Positions 8,718-16,266 of a DNA stretch of 64,000 nt are shown here, piece by piece. The stretch spans positions 96,001 to 160,000 of the forward strand of contig JBFWLW010000002.1 of assembly GCA_050251945.1 (NCBI GenBank), written 5' to 3'. The stretch is from Deferribacterales bacterium. Lineage in GTDB: Bacteria > Chrysiogenota > Deferribacteres > Deferribacterales > Geovibrionaceae. The position numbers and the translations under genes are program-made. The notes below the pieces were generated by a model that saw only the letters and a list, made by a program, of their open reading frames with translations, was not told the origin of the DNA and searched no databases. Positions within the stretch are counted from its first letter, which is position 1; each line of letters begins with the position of its first letter.

Positions 8718-10253
8718 TTAAGATTTCTTAAATTCTATACCAAGTTTTCTCATTTTATTTCTGAGAGTGCTGGGATTCATTCCGAGTTTTTCCGCAGCTC
8801 CGTCATCTCCGCTTATTTTCCATCTGGCTTGCTTAAGTGCCGTAAGAATATGTTTCTTTACTGTACTGTCAAGACATTCCGAACTTTCAGGAAATGAGGC
8901 GCAGGGGTCGTTTTCTATTACGCAGTCAAATTTCAGATGCTTCCCTTTGTTGATGATAAGCTCGCGTTCTATTATGTTCTCCATTTCGCGGACGTTGCCT
9001 GGCCAGTCATACCGCTTAATTCTTTCCGCAACGTAATTAGGAACCTTTGGAATATCTTTTATTCCAAAAGCGTTGCATTTCTTTTCGACAAGATATCTGA
9101 CGAACTCAGGTATGTCCTCTCTCCTCTTTCTCAGCGGCGGTATCTCTATGGGAAATACATTCAGACGCCAATACAAATCTTCACGAAAACGCCCGTCCTT
9201 GACCATTTCCCTGAGATTTCTGTTTGTTGCTGCGATTATGCGCACATCAACTTTTGTTGTTTTTCCGTTACCAAGTCTCTCTATCTCGCCGAACTGAATG
9301 GCACGAAGCAGCTTAACCTGCGACGCAAGCGGCAGTTCTCCGATCTCATCAAAAAACAGAGTACCCTTATGCGCAAGATGGAATCGACCGTTCTTAACAG
9401 TGTCCGCACCGGTGAAGGCGCCCTTTTCATGACCAAAAAGTTCGTTATCCACAAGAGATTCGGGAATGGAACCGCAATTGACCTTTATAAATGGTTCATC
9501 CTTTCTCAATGAATTAATATGTATATAATTTGCTATAACATCTTTTCCGACACCCGTCTCTCCGGTCAAAAGAACCGTACTGGGAAACTTTGCGATGCTG
9601 GAAGCCATTTCAACAACCTTTTTCAATCCGCCGTTTGCACCGACCAGAAATGCATTTTTCTCAACATTCTTATTTATAAACTCAATAAGATCGTGGCTTC
9701 TTCCAATAAGTCTGACATTATCTTCAATCAGTTTATTATAGACCAGAGCACTGAAAAAGAATTTTGAAACTGAATTGACAAGACACTTCAACAGTTTTTT
9801 ATGATGATCATTATATACATTGTCCTCAAAAGCTCTTATGACAAGCGCGCCGATTACTTTTGAAGAACCCTTTATCTGCAAAACAATGTCCGAGTTGCCT
9901 TTAAGCCCGATAAAATCAAGATACTCGCTCGGAAGGGGGGAATTATAATAACTCATATAGAAAACGTCTTCATCTCCGACACAAATATCTTTCTCACTCA
10001 GACTGGAAGGCATATCAGTTGCGACATTTGACTTCAGCAGAACACCACGCTCAACCTGACTGATGTTATACATCTGATTCGTGGCTTCCACGTAACATGC
10101 CATCTTGATGTAATCAATAGGCATATATTCACGAAGAAGTTTGTATAAATTCATCAGAAAATCATCCACATTGCTACTATTAAAGCAGATATGGGCGGCT
10201 TTATCTGCAAAACCGTCTAGATACAGCATAATAAAAAGTACCTCATAATTCAC
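8718..10253 (-). CDS. Sigma54-dependent enhancer-binding protein (GAF-like + AAA+ + HTH, FhlA-like)
   Basis: GETGVGKD Walker [33 protein letters not shown] and C-terminal HTH; start may be ATG 10229. Confidence 0.93.
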
Positions 10254-10397
10254 TGTCTTAAATAAGAATTATTTACATATGTAGCGATCTGTCAACATTT
10301 TAAATATGTTTTTCTTGCGGATATATCTTAGCCACTAACCTTTTGAATACCATGCAGCAATATGTTCTTCATGTGATGTTGGGCACATACAGCAATT

Positions 10398-10433
10398 TGC
10401 CGAATACGACAGCATTAATCGCCAAATACGGCG
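10398..10433 (+). promoter_or_regulatory. Paired palindromic upstream activator sites, copy 1
   Basis: TGCCgaatacGACA (10398-10411) and CGCCaaatacGGCG (10420-10433), 22 bp apart; conserved in copy 2. Confidence 0.65.
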
Positions 10434-10484
10434 AAAACGACTCCGTGTAATATTTTTTATTAATAATATCAATAGCATATCGTT

Positions 10485-10500
10485 TGGCACATCTGTTGCT
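10485..10500 (+). promoter_or_regulatory. Sigma54 -24/-12 promoter of cytochrome 1
   Basis: TGGCAC-atctg-TTGCT, exact consensus spacing; beside a sigma54 activator gene. Confidence 0.88.
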
Positions 10501-10584
10501 CATATGCTTAGGAATGTATCTGATTAAAGCGATTTAATGCTTGGTAGGAAAAAGAAAAATTTTAAAAGTATCATTTGAAAGTTC

Positions 10585-10818
10585 GCACAGGAAGCCGGGG
10601 ATGCAAAAGCCGTTAGCCTCCAAATTATCGGTTTTGACATCTGCCTTTCACTTTCACACAAAAGTGATGGCTTCCGGTGCTTTCTTTGAAGTGCAACAAC
10701 TATTTTACTGTATGGCAACAAACTCCTGCTAACTGACAACAGCACATAAAATTTTCAGGAGGCTAATTTTATTTATCTTGTGCCTGTCTCTGCGGAGTTA
10801 TTTATAGGAGGCTAATTT
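10585..10818 (+). ncRNA. Candidate structured cis-regulatory leader RNA, copy 1
   Basis: Three-way junction with TTAGCCTCC loop, then a hairpin with GGAGG in its loop, then the RBS; stems covary with copy 2. Confidence 0.65.
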
Positions 10819-13227
10819 ATGTTGAAGCGATTCTTATTTGTTTTATTGTTCGCTCTCACCTGTGCTTTTATGCTTGCAGGATGCGGACAGGATGGTTCTG
10901 ACGGTGCTGACGGCACGAGCGCAGACACTGCAGCTATAATAGCGGAACTGCAGCAGCAGCTTGCAGACGGAACAATCACTATTGCCGAATACGAGGCCGC
11001 AATAGCTGAACTGCAGGCTGCGATTGAAGCAGCAGGAAAAATTTCATCTGTTGAATCCTGCGATACATGCCACGCAGAAGGCTCAGTTTATGAGCCCGGT
11101 CATAGCGGAAAACTGGCATCTTCCGGAACTCTTGTCGATTATACTAACGATTGGACAACCACTCTTGACAGTGTCACGATGGATGGTACAGCAAACACGG
11201 CTACAATTCTGTTCACTGTTACCAGCACAGGCGATGCTTTTTCAACCTCTGGTATAGGTGTTCTTCTTAACGTCTACGACTCAACTACAAATAGATGGTC
11301 GCAAATTGCTGATGCAGCAGGCGCCAGCGGAACAAGTACAACAATTACTGCAACAGGAACTGAAAACCAGTATCAGGCAGTAGTTACAGATACTGACATA
11401 ACAACAACCAGTGTTGCTGACGACACATTTATGATCCGTATTGCATATGCAAGCGGGGAAAATTCTTTTGCAATTGTCAGAATAGTGAAAAACAGTACTA
11501 TTTACGCAATGGATTCTGATGAAAACCCGAGAAACCTGTATAGCGATAACAGTTCAGACCCCAGCTGTGCAAAATGCCACGGCAAAGGCGAGTTTGAATT
11601 TGTTTCAGGTTCTCATGCTCACAATCCTTACACTATGCCCTATGTGACAGTTGACGGCGATGCTTGTCAGATATGCCACATCGGCGCAAGCACAACTGCT
11701 AAAAACCCCACAACTTTTGCAAGTAACTTCAAATCTGCGCTTGTTACCAAGATACACGGTATTCACGCGGCAGACGGAGCATACAGCTATACAAGCAGCT
11801 ATGAAGTTGATGCACCCAGCAATATGTCAGACTGCTCAGTATGCCACACAACTGACACTCAGCTTGCAAACGCTGTAGATAATACTAACTTCACATTTGA
11901 TCTCTGCGCCACATGCCACGGAGACAGTGTTTGGGACAGCGACCCTATAGTTGACGCATTTGATGCAGGAACACTTCCCAGTTTCCATAAAAACTATACA
12001 AGTGCAACCGATTGCCAGACAAGCTGCCACGACGGCGCGTCAGGTGCCGCAGCTACGGTCACACTTGAAACTATCCACTCAGAAAACACTCATAATATGG
12101 AAGTTTCACTGGGTAAAGATATTGCATATGTCATCGACTCTGTAAGCGTTTCCGGCAGCACCGGTACTATAAAATGGCAGGCGACTAAGTCAGGAGTTGC
12201 TCAGAATGTTCTCAGCACTTCGACTTCTGCGCCGGTTTTCAACAACATCAATTCCGAAAGCAGAGGCGGTAAATCTTACACTCCCGTATTCCGCTTCGGT
12301 TTTTACACCGGTGATGATATTACCAATCAGGGTAACTCAACTCAGGGCGGGCAGCCTACCCTGTCTGTAGCTATAAATGCGACAACAACTGTTGCGAGCT
12401 CAGATACCGGCTACTATGAAACAACCTTTACAATTCCGTCTACAGTGACCGCAGAAAACGGGGTTGTGATTCTTGAAGGCGTTCCTGTAGTTTGGGCGAC
12501 TGTAAACAACACCAGCACAGCATTTCTTGCTATAGTGGATTCTGTTTCTAAAAACTTCAAAGTCTCCGACGGCTCTGATATAGATGCACGTCGTGAGGTT
12601 GTTGATATGGAACTTTGCAAAAGCTGTCACACCGACATTCTCGGTCACGGGCACAGCAGGGTCAACAGCATAGAAACATGCGTACTCTGCCACAACCCTA
12701 ACGCCACTGATGCCTCGCCAAGAACTTCACTTGCCGCTCTTGGCTATGACACATCTGCAGACGGAAAAACCCAGCAGTCTTACGACTTGAAAGTCATGAT
12801 CCACAACATCCACTCAACGACTTTCACTGGCACTCCTTACTTTGTATACCGTTCAAGAGGCATTTACGCATTCTATAACGGAGATGATTCCACGCTGCCT
12901 TCTGATTTCGGCACAACCGGAGACGGAAGCACTAGCTGGAATAAGGTTAAGATACAATATCCCAGATCAATTGCATCATGTGACGCATGCCACATTAATG
13001 ACAGTCAGTTCGGCGCTGATCAGTCAAAGGCAATTCCTGTGACTGTTGATCAGGGCGATGATCTGACAACTCATGATGATGACACGGTTATCGGACCCAA
13101 TGCTGCAGCTTGTACAAGCTGTCACAAAGGAAGTATTTCGGATACCGTATCGACAACATCTCACACCAGAACTTTCGGGTATTACGTTAAGATGATTAAG
13201 GAAGAAATACTCGCTCTTATAAGCTGA
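10819..13227 (+). CDS. Decaheme c-type cytochrome lipoprotein, OmcA/MtrC-like
   Basis: Lipobox LAGC; 9 CxxCH plus 1 CxxxCH (CQTSCH); CVLCHNPN, MIHNIH and YPRSIASCDACH are MtrC-like motifs. Confidence 0.88.
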   Translation: MLKRFLFVLLFALTCAFMLAGCGQDGSDGADGTSADTAAIIAELQQQLADGTITIAEYEAAIAELQAAIEAAGKISSVESCDTCHAEGSVYEPGHSGKLASSGTLVDYTNDWTTTLDSVTMDGTANTATILFTVTSTGDAFSTSGIGVLLNVYDSTTNRWSQIADAAGASGTSTTITATGTENQYQAVVTDTDITTTSVADDTFMIRIAYASGENSFAIVRIVKNSTIYAMDSDENPRNLYSDNSSDPSCAKCHGKGEFEFVSGSHAHNPYTMPYVTVDGDACQICHIGASTTAKNPTTFASNFKSALVTKIHGIHAADGAYSYTSSYEVDAPSNMSDCSVCHTTDTQLANAVDNTNFTFDLCATCHGDSVWDSDPIVDAFDAGTLPSFHKNYTSATDCQTSCHDGASGAAATVTLETIHSENTHNMEVSLGKDIAYVIDSVSVSGSTGTIKWQATKSGVAQNVLSTSTSAPVFNNINSESRGGKSYTPVFRFGFYTGDDITNQGNSTQGGQPTLSVAINATTTVASSDTGYYETTFTIPSTVTAENGVVILEGVPVVWATVNNTSTAFLAIVDSVSKNFKVSDGSDIDARREVVDMELCKSCHTDILGHGHSRVNSIETCVLCHNPNATDASPRTSLAALGYDTSADGKTQQSYDLKVMIHNIHSTTFTGTPYFVYRSRGIYAFYNGDDSTLPSDFGTTGDGSTSWNKVKIQYPRSIASCDACHINDSQFGADQSKAIPVTVDQGDDLTTHDDDTVIGPNAAACTSCHKGSISDTVSTTSHTRTFGYYVKMIKEEILALIS

Positions 13228-13252
13228 TATTTCGGATTTGATAATCACACAC

Positions 13253-13432
13253 GGGGCGCTTTACGGCGCCCCCAGGTTGTTGACAAACTACAGATTCATA
13301 CAAACCCATTAGACTGCTTCGGGCTAAAGCCCTCGCAGAGACAGGTTTTTCTTTCCGTCTTTGCGAGCGAAGCGAAGCAATCTAGTCTTTTCTCCTCTTT
13401 GTCATCAGTCTGGGGGCGCTTTACGGCGCCCC
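13253..13432. mobile_element. MITE copy A (13273-13412) with 20 bp duplicated terminator hairpin
   Basis: Direct repeat GGGGCGCTTTACGGCGCCCC at 13253 and 13413; ends CAGGTTGTTGACAAA / TTTGTCATCAGTCTG; internal REP-like palindrome. Confidence 0.85.
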
Positions 13433-13586
13433 TTTTTTATATGAAATTAACAGAAGAGCAAACAGGTCCTATAGGTAAGCTGAGAAAAGCGAAAAACAGA
13501 AACTGCAAATTCGGTTTATAACTTCCTGATAATGCTTTTTTACCGAAAGATACGAAATATAAATCTATTGAACGTATGCAGCAATT

Positions 13587-13622
13587 TGCCAAATACGGCA
13601 GTATTAATCACCAAATATGGTG
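13587..13622 (+). promoter_or_regulatory. Paired palindromic upstream activator sites, copy 2
   Basis: TGCCaaatacGGCA (13587-13600) and CACCaaatatGGTG (13609-13622), 22 bp apart. Confidence 0.65.
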
Positions 13623-13673
13623 AAAACAACTCTGTTTAAAATTTTTCATTAATAATATCAATAATATACTATC

Positions 13674-13689
13674 AGGCACATCTATTGCT
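13674..13689 (+). promoter_or_regulatory. Sigma54 -24/-12 promoter of cytochrome 2
   Basis: AGGCAC-atcta-TTGCT; paralogous to 10485-10500. Confidence 0.82.
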
Positions 13690-13772
13690 CTATGTTCGAG
13701 AATATATCTGATTAAAACGATTAAGTGCGTGGTAAGAAAAAATAATATTTAAAACCCCTCAACTGAAAGTTT

Positions 13773-14007
13773 GCACGGGAAGCCGGAGATGCAAAAGCCG
13801 TTAGCCTCCAAATTATCGGTTTTAACATCTTATTCTCACTTTCACACAAAAGTGATGGCTTCCGGTGCTTTTTTGAAACTCTATCAAGTATTTTTCCATA
13901 TGGCAACAAACTCTTGCCAATGATGAGACCGCAGGAAATTTTCAGGAGGCTAATTTATTGATCCTGTGCGTTTTTCACAAGCAGAGTTATATATAGGAGG
14001 CTAATTT
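13773..14007 (+). ncRNA. Candidate structured cis-regulatory leader RNA, copy 2
   Basis: Same fold as copy 1, with compensatory stem changes. Confidence 0.65.
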
Positions 14008-16266
14008 ATGTTGAAGCGATTCTTATTTGTTTTATTGTTCGCTTTCACCTGTGCTTTTGTGCTTACAGGATGCGGACAGGATGGTTCTGACGGTGCTGAC
14101 GGCACAAGCGCAGATACTGAGGCTATAATAGCTGAACTGCAAGCGCAGCTTGCTAGCGGTGAAATCACTATCCAGGAATATGAAGATGCCATAGCGGATC
14201 TCCAATCTCAACTCAACTCTTCAAAAATTTCTCAGGTTGAATCCTGCTCCGTGTGCCACGATTCATCTGATATACATGAAGTTTCTGTGGGTCTTTACCA
14301 AGCAGCAAGTGTTTCTCTTACAATTAACTCGGCCACGCAAGCCACTTTAACGTTTAAGGCTGCTAAAGACGGTGTAAATAGGACTGACACAATCGGGCTT
14401 AGGCATGGATCTTTGTATTTCTATGACTCCGCCAACAGCGGATACAACAGATACGGTATAGATTCTTATGTTACAACTACCGGACCTGATTCAGACGGAA
14501 CTTACACATCCGTGATAGACATATCCGCAGATACAACACTCACAAGCAAGATTGATCTCACGAGTACTGATGTCAGGTATTGGCTTTCATACGGCAACAG
14601 CGGCGCAACCAATACAAACAATTTTGAAGTTGTTGAAGACTATCCTGAATCTCCTAACCCTTCAATAACAGATGCAAGCTGTCTCGGTTGCCACTCTGAT
14701 TTTATCTGGCAATACGGTACAAACAAAGCGACAAATTCGTATCACCACGGATCAACACCGCAAGGTGCCGAATCATGCATAGTTTGTCATTCCAGATATG
14801 ACAGCAACAGCGGCACAACTTTTATGCAATACGTACACGGCATACATAGCTCCGGCGAAGGTACAAATGGATATAAAACAATCAACTCCAAGCAGTTTAG
14901 TGTTCACTATCCTCAATCGCTTGCAAACTGTGTGACTTGTCATAATTCCGATGAAAGTCTTGAAGACGCTACGGCTGACTCGCAGTTTACTTACACTGTA
15001 TGTATGACATGTCATGAAAGCTGGGATTCTTTCGATAACCTGCCTTCTGCGATTGATCACACAGGATATACATCAGCTACAACCTGTACCACATGCCACA
15101 GCACAAGTGCAGCTATTGCACCTACTTTTGCAGAACTTCACACAGGTGTTGAAAAAGCAAGAACCTACAATATAGTTTATTTCACTCCCGAAATAACTGT
15201 TGATACTACAAACAGCAAGATATCTGTTGTTTGGGGTGCATTTGAAGATGCTGACGGTGATGGCGTATATACTTCAGGTACAGACACAGTACTCGATGTA
15301 ACCCAGACATCCGATTCCGCAGCACCGATATTTATGCAAAGCTATACAGACAGAGTTGTCGACGGTATTGCAAAATCTGAAGGTGTAAGAATACTTGTCG
15401 GTTACTACGGATTTGGAACAGATGATGTTGTAGCTTACAGCAGCTATGCTAAATCTGCTCTTACGACAACCGATTCAGCAACATCAGGTTACACTACCTA
15501 CAGCTCTTCAACAGGCAAAGCGACAACCACTATAGCTCTCAGCACGTCTAATATCAGTAGTTATGAGTCTACAAAAGGTATCGTAGGTATCATCGGTATT
15601 CCGTGGGTTAACGGTGAAAACGCATACGTTACAAGCGTTACGAAAGAGTTCAATATGGACGGAACAGCTGTTACTGCACGTACAGCTGTCATTAATAATG
15701 ACAATTGCGACGCATGTCACACAAGCGTAGCTCCCGCAGGCGCCAACGGTATCGCAATCCACCTGAATGAAGACTCTTCAGGCGCACACGGACACACTGC
15801 TATCGGCAGCGTTGATGCCTGTAGAATTTGCCACAACTCAAGCTCTGCAGCAGGTCACTATGCACAGCAGTCAAGGTCAATCGACTCTTACCTTCACGCT
15901 ATCCACGCTGAACAGCCTACACTTGCATCATATGACTCACTGACAATCAAATATCCTAACTATATTAAAGATTGCTCAGTATGCCACGATGACGGTACAT
16001 ACGAAGCACCTGATCAGACTAAAGCAGTTGGTGGTGTTGTTAGCGGAAGTGAACAGTCTGACGGGACTCTTTTGTCTTCCGATCAGGTTGTTACCGGTCC
16101 TGGTGCAGTTGCCTGTGGCTCATGTCACAAAGCACTCGCCATTGCTGACGATGACTCCGCGACTGTAACTTCTATCAATGCACATACAGGTTCTTTCGGA
16201 TACAGAGTATCTGTTTCCTCTATGCCTTATCTGGAAGTACTTCAGGCTGTTTTTGCCTTGTTTTAA
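14008..16266 (+). CDS. Decaheme c-type cytochrome lipoprotein, OmcA/MtrC-like
   Basis: Lipobox LTGC; 10 CxxCH motifs; YVHGIH, YPQSLANCVTCH, YLHAIH. Confidence 0.88.
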   Translation: MLKRFLFVLLFAFTCAFVLTGCGQDGSDGADGTSADTEAIIAELQAQLASGEITIQEYEDAIADLQSQLNSSKISQVESCSVCHDSSDIHEVSVGLYQAASVSLTINSATQATLTFKAAKDGVNRTDTIGLRHGSLYFYDSANSGYNRYGIDSYVTTTGPDSDGTYTSVIDISADTTLTSKIDLTSTDVRYWLSYGNSGATNTNNFEVVEDYPESPNPSITDASCLGCHSDFIWQYGTNKATNSYHHGSTPQGAESCIVCHSRYDSNSGTTFMQYVHGIHSSGEGTNGYKTINSKQFSVHYPQSLANCVTCHNSDESLEDATADSQFTYTVCMTCHESWDSFDNLPSAIDHTGYTSATTCTTCHSTSAAIAPTFAELHTGVEKARTYNIVYFTPEITVDTTNSKISVVWGAFEDADGDGVYTSGTDTVLDVTQTSDSAAPIFMQSYTDRVVDGIAKSEGVRILVGYYGFGTDDVVAYSSYAKSALTTTDSATSGYTTYSSSTGKATTTIALSTSNISSYESTKGIVGIIGIPWVNGENAYVTSVTKEFNMDGTAVTARTAVINNDNCDACHTSVAPAGANGIAIHLNEDSSGAHGHTAIGSVDACRICHNSSSAAGHYAQQSRSIDSYLHAIHAEQPTLASYDSLTIKYPNYIKDCSVCHDDGTYEAPDQTKAVGGVVSGSEQSDGTLLSSDQVVTGPGAVACGSCHKALAIADDDSATVTSINAHTGSFGYRVSVSSMPYLEVLQAVFALF

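Follow-up and report, generated by a model that had tools for sequence, protein, structure and literature searches.

A three-way-junction RNA with an anti-RBS loop at MtrC-like cytochrome genes, a candidate trans-acting small RNA

Two MtrC-like cytochrome genes in the window (the whole 64,000-nt stretch analysed, G000:C2:96001-160000 of the 3.07-Mb source genome, G000) carry in their leaders a structured RNA, domain 1, that displays a loop complementary to ribosome-binding sites (RBSs) of cytochrome paralogs. Its structure, copies, positions, complementarity and distribution were read directly from the sequence. Domain 1 resembles a small RNA (sRNA) acting in trans more than it does a ligand switch. 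With moderate confidence, we prefer the reading that it represses cytochrome paralogs in trans while a decoy protects the message that carries it.

The two leaders and the fold of domain 1

The activator and cytochrome genes form a cassette (8718-16266) inserted between two genes that we recognised by eye and take to be rpsL and rpoC. At the same site in G004, the activator and gene 1 are followed by an unrelated 986-aa lipoprotein-like ORF that replaces gene 2. The activator is a divergently transcribed sigma54 activator (bEBP; 8718-10253, minus strand; Pfam PF00158, E 1e-67, plus a Fis HTH) with a 96% identical gene at the matching position in G004, and it likely regulates both leaders, a link that we infer. 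Genes 1 and 2 each have their own direct-repeat pair, sigma54 box and leader of ~308 nt, which agrees with the sigma54 promoter and ~300-nt leader described in an earlier, sequence-only reading of this DNA. In leader 1 the GCCRAATACG repeat pair, a putative activator site identified as a sequence pattern, spans 10399-10430, and the -24/-12 box GGCACATCTGTTGC lies at 10486-10499 (plus strand), with a predicted start near 10511. The corresponding elements of leader 2 (13588-13688, plus strand) are a pair at 13588-13619 and a box at 13675-13688. Within the source genome the pattern pair occurs only at leaders 1 and 2, while the box of leader 1 recurs in leader 2 and in G004. A second candidate sigma54 box, at TGGCAACAAAC, was rejected by eye as its spacing to the GC was wrong.

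Gene 1 (10819-13227, plus strand) encodes an MtrC/OmcA-like lipoprotein cytochrome of 802 aa, and gene 2 (14008-16266, plus strand, with its RBS at 13995-14007) an MtrC-like cytochrome of 752 aa. Both have a lipoprotein signal (lipobox LAGC/LTGC, assigned by eye) and the Pfam MtrC/MtrF domain PF22113, above cut-off in two stretches. The description as decaheme cytochromes holds as it stands for gene 2, with 10 CxxCH motifs; gene 1 reaches ten heme motifs with nine CxxCH plus one CX3CH. The two proteins are 78% identical over the N-terminus and 29% over the body. The nearest named counterpart of the gene 1 product, 93% identical, is in Seleniivibrio woodruffii, and a sequence search for a PDB relative of the cytochromes gave none at E 0.01. 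One non-canonical heme motif (CX3CH or CX4CH) is present in three of the four paralogs of the source genome, at residue 399 of gene 1, 398 of the C4 paralog and 416 of the C8 paralog. After gene 1, two GGGGCGC hairpins flank a repeat-like stretch (13254-13440); short pieces of many unrelated contigs match 13270-13415, which is probably a small mobile or REP-like repeat.

Domain 1 of leader 1 (10585-10680, plus strand) is a three-way junction of P1 (10585-96 with 10669-80), P2 (10600-12 with 10629-41) and P3 (10648-54 with 10661-67), as the sequence-only reading had it, with an A.G mismatch in P1. Copy 2 occupies 13773-13868 (13773-13876 with its U-tract, plus strand). Compared with shuffled sequences, domain 1 folds with z = -4.8 in copy 1 and -6.0 in copy 2, and the five copies described below range from -4.4 to -6.0. 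The reverse strands also fold well (z -3.9 to -4.9), which counts against the preferred reading. Conservation is concentrated in the domain itself. Copies 1 and 2 are identical at 89 of 96 positions, whereas the upstream segment agrees at 56 of 74 and the linker at 28 of 40, and across three leaders domain 1 is 93% identical while its flanks are about 70-76% identical.

The pairing is also supported by how the copies differ. Over five copies, 8 of the 31 pairs of domain 1 show changes on both sides, a level reached by none of 500 shuffles, and in a model-fitted alignment 90% of cells pair, compared with 41-49% in slid controls. As that alignment is biased toward structure and the sequences are few and related, these values are support rather than proof; five copies from about two to three lineages are too few for a formal covariation test. 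The proposed compensatory change from AACTCCTGC/GCGGAGTT to AACTCTTGC/GCAGAGTT is real, and replaces C-G by U-A. The base of P1 (GCAC-GGA/UCC-GUGC, seven pairs; 10585-10592 with 10673-10680) is invariant in all five copies while P2 and P3 vary, and is possibly a protein or nuclease site. The bases of the junction between P1, P2 and P3 vary among copies.

The P2 loop is C-rich and 15-16 nt long, and in it UAGCCUCC is invariant in all five copies. It contains the anti-RBS seed UUAGCCUCC (10613-10621, plus strand; 13801-09 in copy 2). The last five positions of its GCCUCC are predicted to be unpaired (p = 1.0) and its UAG partly paired. The comparisons support the view that selection maintains this loop as an anti-RBS element. 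The loop sequence TTAGCCTCC at 10613-21 has its complement at 10758-66 and at 10807-15, exactly where the sequence-only reading placed them, and the second leader holds the identical trio at 13801, 13945 and 13996. The window contains six matches to the seed or its complement, compared with 0.24 expected; these are not independent, as the leaders are duplicated and the decoy and RBS form a 13-nt direct repeat, AGGAGGCTAATTT.

A cmscan search against Rfam 15 matched no family to either domain. At the Rfam gathering score the window contained just five tRNAs, and at E up to 10 the region 10250-14100 gave six sub-threshold matches, none of them in domain 1 and one, a chance snoRNA match, in domain 2 of leader 2. 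Our searches of the open-access literature found no paper on such an element for the cytochromes of this genus, on MtrC sRNAs, on decoy or paralog sRNAs of this kind or on Deferribacter non-coding RNA, although supplementary motif tables could contain one. Domain 1 is thus a real structured RNA outside every Rfam family, and apparently an undescribed one.

Copies, placement and complementarity to the C8 paralog

A covariance-model search of 68 genomes of the phylum, as the sequence-only reading had proposed, identified five copies of domain 1 (E 0.01 or better) in three genomes of a single genus; the model was built from the same five copies and so must recover them by construction. This search yielded no wider homologues, and two of its five copies lie outside leaders. 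The third copy in the source genome (G000:C4:119225-119322) was found at E 0.01 with a profile of the two window copies. A third paralog ends ~100 nt before it, with the terminator of that paralog in between, and the gene that follows, after about 870 nt, encodes a solute symporter. The copy at G006:C3, reached through a paralog search of 41 genomes, likewise lies behind the matching paralog gene and abuts a convergent AraC-type gene. G004 has a full leader copy. Therefore, three of the five copies are in sigma54-type leaders of MtrC-like genes, and two are 3' of another paralog with unrelated genes downstream. These two copies cannot be cis switches, and domain 1 is not an obligate leader element.

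Neither 3' copy has a decoy. Conversely, a paralog at G006:C5, with a body 83% identical to that of gene 2, has domain 2, the decoy hairpin, without domain 1. As the 3' copies lack a decoy and a downstream cytochrome, and domain 2 occurs alone at G006:C5, domains 1 and 2 are separable modules. By query search, full-length paralogs number four in G000, three in G006, two in G004 and one in G002. The RNA is found in the three genomes with at least two of them and is absent from G002 (96% complete), a comparison among related genomes that are not independent.

Wider searching gave no convincing homologue under the covariance model in two further sets of 79 and 20 loci, drawn from pattern scans and other retrieved sequences. 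The pattern scans had returned five stretches in genome contigs, 16 with a looser pattern and 71 in metagenome contigs; of these the model kept just the copy already known, the others scoring 23 bits or less. A G055 match of 23 bits was rejected as it had no seed, and matches at G006:C4:117238 and G000:C4:223642 were rejected as they lay inside coding DNA.

The strongest complementarity is that of the 3' copies. Their loop, TAGCCTCCTTTTGC, is identical in G000 and G006 although P2, P3 and the junctions have diverged. It is perfectly complementary, over 14 nt, to the RBS region of C8, a fourth paralog (G000:C8:29119-31524), but matches the RBS of the gene that the RNA follows over just 8 nt. 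An 11-mer of the loop has two sites in the 3.07-Mb source genome, the loop itself and the C8 RBS. Across seven genomes of the genus the 14-mer has six sites, namely two RNA loops and the RBSs of four C8-type genes, and controls gave none. Part of the 14-mer pairs within P2 through G-U pairs, which are unchanged while an adjacent pair changes on both sides. In our reading, this points to an outside constraint on the 14-mer.

Ranking of targets supports C8 for the C4 RNA. We used 2700 crude gene calls (ORFs >100 codons, with the start set by the Shine-Dalgarno sequence, SD), which makes the ranks approximate and leaves out short genes. By duplex energy, C8 was first of the 2700 genes (-25.9 kcal/mol, next -25.3 kcal/mol). 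With accessibility included, it was first of 331 candidates at -18.3 compared with -12.4 kcal/mol for the next, a lead of 5.9 kcal/mol, and the RNA's own gene ranked 77. For the window RNA with accessibility, C8 was first of 113 candidates, with genes 2, C4 and 1 at ranks 15, 17 and 18, but its lead of 0.5 kcal/mol is within error and C8 fell outside the raw top 20. A flavodoxin gene (G000:C1:202870 leader) was considered as a second target of the C4 RNA and rejected as a conserved one, since its energy was -25.0 kcal/mol in G000 and G002 but -8.2 kcal/mol in the RNA-bearing G006.

The window seed is only 9-10 nt, and perfect 9-10-nt matches in 12 of the 2700 genes count against its specificity. 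As an SD, GGAGGCTAA occurs in four of the 2700 genes (4 of the 482 with GGAGG), and these are all four MtrC-like paralogs; before ATG in four genomes it has 15 sites, 10 at paralogs and five at non-cytochrome genes. The window seed is enriched for the paralog family, not exclusive to it, and an RBS common to paralogs is inherited and so not independent evidence. Domain 1 exposes a conserved seed complementary to a start region elsewhere, over 14 nt in C4-type copies and 9-10 nt in window copies. It is likely that the 3' copies act on C8.

A C8-type gene is present in all four genomes of the genus in which the query found a full-length paralog. In G000 it lies just upstream of a cluster, annotated with Pfam, of six multiheme cytochromes, a cytochrome b and a 414-aa protein. 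The last of these has no Pfam match, and a beta-barrel porin cluster is among its Atlas neighbours (score 0.98), so we regard the locus as a putative porin-cytochrome cluster. No comparable cluster adjoined the other paralogs within the stretches read. Among the products of G000:C8:14700-28500 are a 1083-aa protein with 28 heme motifs, the cytochrome b, an NHL-repeat protein and the probable porin. The region upstream of C8 (G000:C8:31630-31700, minus strand) has four near-tandem copies of AATGACCGTGT, also present in G002 and once in G004, which are a possible operator array or variable repeat.

The decoy, release of the RNA and rival explanations

Domain 2 of leader 1 (10721-10799, plus strand) is a long interrupted hairpin whose loop contains the decoy, a copy of the RBS sequence AGGAGGCTAATTT (10757-10769, plus strand) recognised as a conserved sequence repeat. 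The true RBS of gene 1 follows at 10806-10818 (plus strand), with GGAGG 7 nt before the ATG. Domain 2 of leader 2 lies at 13909-13988 (plus strand), with its decoy at 13944-56. The decoy hairpin of the sequence-only reading was borne out in part. Its GGAGG loop at 10758-66 is conserved, but only copy 1 has the inner ATAAAATT/AATTTTAT stem, and the consensus is a wide open loop. Domain 2 alone folded no better than shuffles in four sequences (z 0.36, -0.57, 0.97 and 0.06), and 4 of its 17 pairs changed on both sides among those four, with the G006 row misaligned in the outer helix. Its 5' foot carries CUCCUG, a second anti-SD-like arm that the sequence-only reading had not mentioned. Pairing of this 5' arm with the RBS, seen in an RNAalifold consensus, had single-sequence probabilities of 0.015, 0, 0.075 and 0, and was set aside as a minor possibility.

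Conservation singles out the decoy loop. In pairwise comparisons it is identical at 20/22, 21/23 and 21/22 positions, compared with 19-22 of 29-33 in the adjoining stem segments; for leaders 1 and 2 the values are 20/22 for the loop and 19/30 and 22/33 for its neighbours. The decoy is found in all three leaders that embed domain 1, at 49, 51 and 50 nt from the RBS, and the C4- and C8-type leaders examined had no model hit and no second RBS copy. At G006:C5 the decoy site reads GGAGGTTGG, with three changes that are all transitions keeping G-U pairing (not significant). The predicted fold there pairs this site with the 5' arm of domain 2 (p 0.91). This decoy-like loop, with no domain 1 in front, may have another partner.

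Could the decoy free the RBS, as had been proposed for an ON state? The net energies of seed pairing with decoy and RBS are -10.6/-10.8, -11.1/-9.8 and -11.4/-10.2 kcal/mol in the three leaders (pseudoknot penalties ignored), and such near-equal pairing means that the decoy can compete. The cost of opening the SD-to-AUG region was 2.4/2.4, 3.7/3.7, 2.6/2.5 and 4.8/4.4 kcal/mol in the two decoy states compared. As occupation leaves this cost unchanged, we rejected the decoy as an allosteric activator, and it is at most a competitor or sink. A competing role of the decoy is thus plausible, while the opening of the RBS is unsupported. A sink would suit a leader that has to protect itself from the repressor it carries, equivalent to the ON state of the sequence-only reading with the ligand removed. 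Probably, the decoy keeps domain 1 in such a leader from occluding the RBS downstream.

A U-tract, absent from the sequence-only reading, directly follows P1 in all five copies, with six to seven T in the first 8 nt (TTTCTTTG at 10681-10688, plus strand, in copy 1), and is a possible leaky terminator or Hfq tail. In the 14 nt after P1 the leader copies have 7-9 T and the stand-alone copies 11, as expected if the latter must stop and the former leak. A simple terminator scan did not call these sites as terminators, and the multi-branched P1 would be an unusual terminator, which counts against this role. No promoter-like site was found between the terminator of the C4 gene and the C4 RNA, so read-through of that terminator is assumed. 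Two small hairpins lie between them (G000:C4:119175-119225), where G006 differs in sequence and, by eye, has hairpin potential. The host has Hfq (87 aa, G000:C1:30769, PF17209), and no ProQ was found in the genome. Domain 1 thus combines a stem and 3' U-tail with a chaperone in the host, and might be bound by Hfq. A 182-aa ORF with two Hfq domains lies at G000:C3:272125-272556. Four public sequencing runs compared with the locus all consisted of contigs, three of them probably DNA, and so have no bearing on a discrete transcript. We are less confident in the release of the window copies than in action of the 3' copies on C8.

In the scheme that we propose, transcription, release, pairing in vivo, the sign of regulation, the role of the decoy and the competition of paralogs for one conduit are all conjectural steps. 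Domain 1 would be a base-pairing sRNA module of ~100 nt on accessory MtrC-like genes of the genus, with P1-P3 as the scaffold that displays the anti-RBS loop and the U-tract as the 3' end. When an accessory gene is induced, the RNA would lower translation of sibling mRNAs, above all those of the C8 type. At C4-type loci the RNA, 3' of the gene, would probably come from read-through of that gene's terminator, and would spare its own mRNA through the poorer match (8 compared with 14 nt). The window copies, which sit inside sigma54-driven leaders, could be freed by incomplete termination at the U-tract or by a cut in the AU-rich linker, and read-through past the U-tract would give the mRNA. The window seed fits its own RBS, and domain 2 would present the decoy ~50 nt ahead of it; transcribed first, the decoy would capture the cis copy and leave the RBS for the ribosome. 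Two points count against this scheme: a window RNA that is free would strike its own RBS too, and a single decoy in each mRNA gives protection from the cis copy only.

One rival is a cis switch set by a protein. Here the window copies would never be freed; the loop would toggle between decoy (ON) and RBS (OFF), CsrA on the CAGGAG of the decoy loop, or another factor, would push it to the RBS, and the trans form seen in the C4-type copies would be derived. The CsrA motif is ANGGA, and the conserved decoy loop has one ~50 nt from a second at the SD. A csrA gene is present, beside an ORF that we take, by eye, to be fliW-like, and G006 retains CAGGAGG without a cis domain 1. The near-equal pairing energies of decoy and RBS also fit. 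CsrA binds GGA in loops, and deletion of csrA in Geobacter alters cytochrome transcripts, according to the available part of one study (PMC11934962). The combination of a loop GGA, an SD GGA and csrA in the genome is nevertheless weak, as GGA is found in any SD and the motif is cheap. Moreover, such a switch leaves the U-tract in all copies and the 14-nt trans match unexplained, and conservation extends past the GGA core to GGCUAA in exactly the three leaders with domain 1. We consider it unlikely, although CsrA is a genuine competitor to the preferred reading. A hybrid is also possible: once CsrA occupies the decoy, the loop would be free to shut the RBS. The invariant seven pairs of the P1 base would also suit a riboswitch, in which the junction binds a metabolite or metal that sets loop-decoy or loop-RBS pairing, as would the position of a three-way junction with near-equal alternative pairings in a 5' leader and the GEMM precedent ahead of Geobacter cytochromes, in the text available to us (PMC1950547). 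However, two of the five copies are not 5' of a related gene, the element was found in one genus only and has no Rfam match at E up to 10, and the loop is already exposed unaided, with no obvious ligand-dependent step. Ligand pockets are expected to have conserved bases, unlike the junction of domain 1, where they vary. The self-contained, ligand-set cis switch of the sequence-only reading found no support in these comparisons: two copies have no decoy or downstream cytochrome and have loops that fit another paralog's RBS better than their own gene's (14 compared with 8 nt), domain 2 exists without domain 1 in G006, and the junction is unconserved. A ligand riboswitch is in our view very improbable.

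Two further readings bear on the decoy. It might be a duplicated RBS, and the loop an inverted paralog RBS, both left by recombination, with the structure just ending or stabilising transcripts. Recombination near the RBS does appear common (N-termini 47-84% and most bodies 20-51% identical), the decoy and RBS form a 13-nt repeat, and domain 2 has z about 0. Such a non-regulatory relic would not account for domain 1 at 93% identity in three leaders compared with about 70-76% in the flanks, for stems that change on both sides around a constant loop, or for a 14-mer kept in two genomes with diverged surroundings, and we hold it to be quite improbable. The least probable reading makes the decoy a working ribosome site, a standby site or short uORF start that feeds the main start and is regulated by the loop. 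The perfect SD in an open loop would suit this, as would a TTG 8 nt after the decoy of leader 2 that opens 12 codons, and FlaX acts through standby sites, as the accessible part of its description states (PMC11879080). But leader 1 has no ATG, GTG or TTG at SD spacing, the distances of 49, 51 and 50 nt do not keep frame, and the upstream MATNSC ORF lacks its ATG in G004. Neither this ORF nor the one at the TTG is conserved, and both were rejected as upstream ORFs.

Related systems and the paralog family

The preferred reading, a trans-acting sRNA, has its closest analogue in FlaX of Vibrio cholerae, which, in the part of the published account available to us, comes from the flaA 3' UTR under RpoN, pairs with the RBS region of flaB and also represses flaA (PMC11879080). 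Both would be a paralog-derived RNA at a sibling's RBS that alters the make-up of a surface structure. From the same partial text, FlaX needs ProQ, is excised by RNase E and acts through three sites. The host here yielded no ProQ, and the present RNA differs in having 5'-embedded and 3' forms, cytochrome targets and a decoy in its own leader, and shares no sequence or Rfam match. The leader form resembles rnTrpL of Sinorhizobium meliloti, a leader RNA freed by premature termination that pairs in trans with a related mRNA, as the available excerpt has it (PMC6614838). That RNA depends on ribosome-mediated attenuation with a leader peptide, whereas the present leaders lack a conserved ORF and the proposed targets are siblings of the gene that carries the RNA. 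SreA and Rli51 are other leader-derived sRNAs that are likewise comparable.

As in the cuckoo/RSs0680 family and RNAIII, a CCUCC-type motif lies in a hairpin loop above variable stems (PMC4615179, available in part). As that portion describes them, cuckoo RNAs belong to Alphaproteobacteria and have two to four adjacent hairpins with CCUCCUCCC and no multiloop (PMC4615179). Domain 1 has a single loop of this kind, set in a three-way junction, and its flanks fit particular RBSs. With a single UAGCCUCC in a multiloop RNA, domain 1 falls outside that family.

The claim that the element does not match the GEMM riboswitches is upheld, since the fold is a three-way junction, GEMM features are absent and cmscan gave no match. 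GAUGCAAAAGCC is loosely similar to part of the GEMM consensus. GEMM/c-di-GMP-I and cGAMP riboswitches also lie 5' of outer-surface cytochrome genes in metal reducers; their two adjacent hairpins, GNRA loop and AAA linker, as given in the text available (PMC1950547), are all absent here.

Precedents for sRNA control at the cell surface also include MicF with ompC-ompF, and MalH, in which an sRNA tied to one outer-membrane protein gene represses another. RyhB is a global iron-sparing RNA under Fur, unlike a module carried by individual paralogs. In Shewanella oneidensis it provides a case of sRNA control of cytochromes, as proposed here, in the part of the report available (PMC5826389). A porin-cytochrome cluster has been described in Deferribacter thermophilus, and the available portion of that paper does not mention RNA control (PMC13186404).

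How bacteria that respire metals or selenium choose among paralogous surface cytochromes is poorly understood, and in the literature searched we found no paper on regulatory RNAs of surface cytochrome genes in the phylum. Accessory cytochromes might compete with the resident one for a conduit, docking being hypothetical, and the RNA would clear the way. More tentatively, a portable RNA cassette may set a pecking order or mutual exclusion among interchangeable surface cytochromes whose N-terminus is constant and which perhaps use one porin conduit. Each accessory cytochrome would come with an RNA aimed at the resident and would be self-protected by seed mismatch in the 3' form or by an own-RBS decoy in the leader form. 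If true, this would be an RNA-based allelic exclusion in extracellular respiration with a cis self-immunity element, and the literature searched held no description of a self-immunity element of such kind. If the decoy works, it offers a compact way for an RNA to shut off siblings that have the same RBS and leave its own mRNA untouched. The question is directly testable, with a named regulator, a named target and exact bases, and it is relevant to sRNA biologists and to engineers of electron-transfer conduits, with a narrow reach of one genus so far.

The paralogs themselves are mosaic. The MtrC-like paralogs, seen at 10819-11050 and 14008-14240 of the window and at G000:C4:116781 and C8:31524, join a common signal peptide and acidic helical N-terminus to dissimilar heme bodies. 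Among ten paralogs of the genus, the first 75 residues are 47-84% identical and the bodies mostly 20-51%; the exceptions are three same-locus pairs with bodies 63, 83 and 94% identical. The bodies of the four C8-locus genes are merely 20-34% identical. This pattern suggests that the surface cytochromes may swap in a cassette-like manner. The body at the C8 locus of G006 is closest to that of gene 1 (48%).
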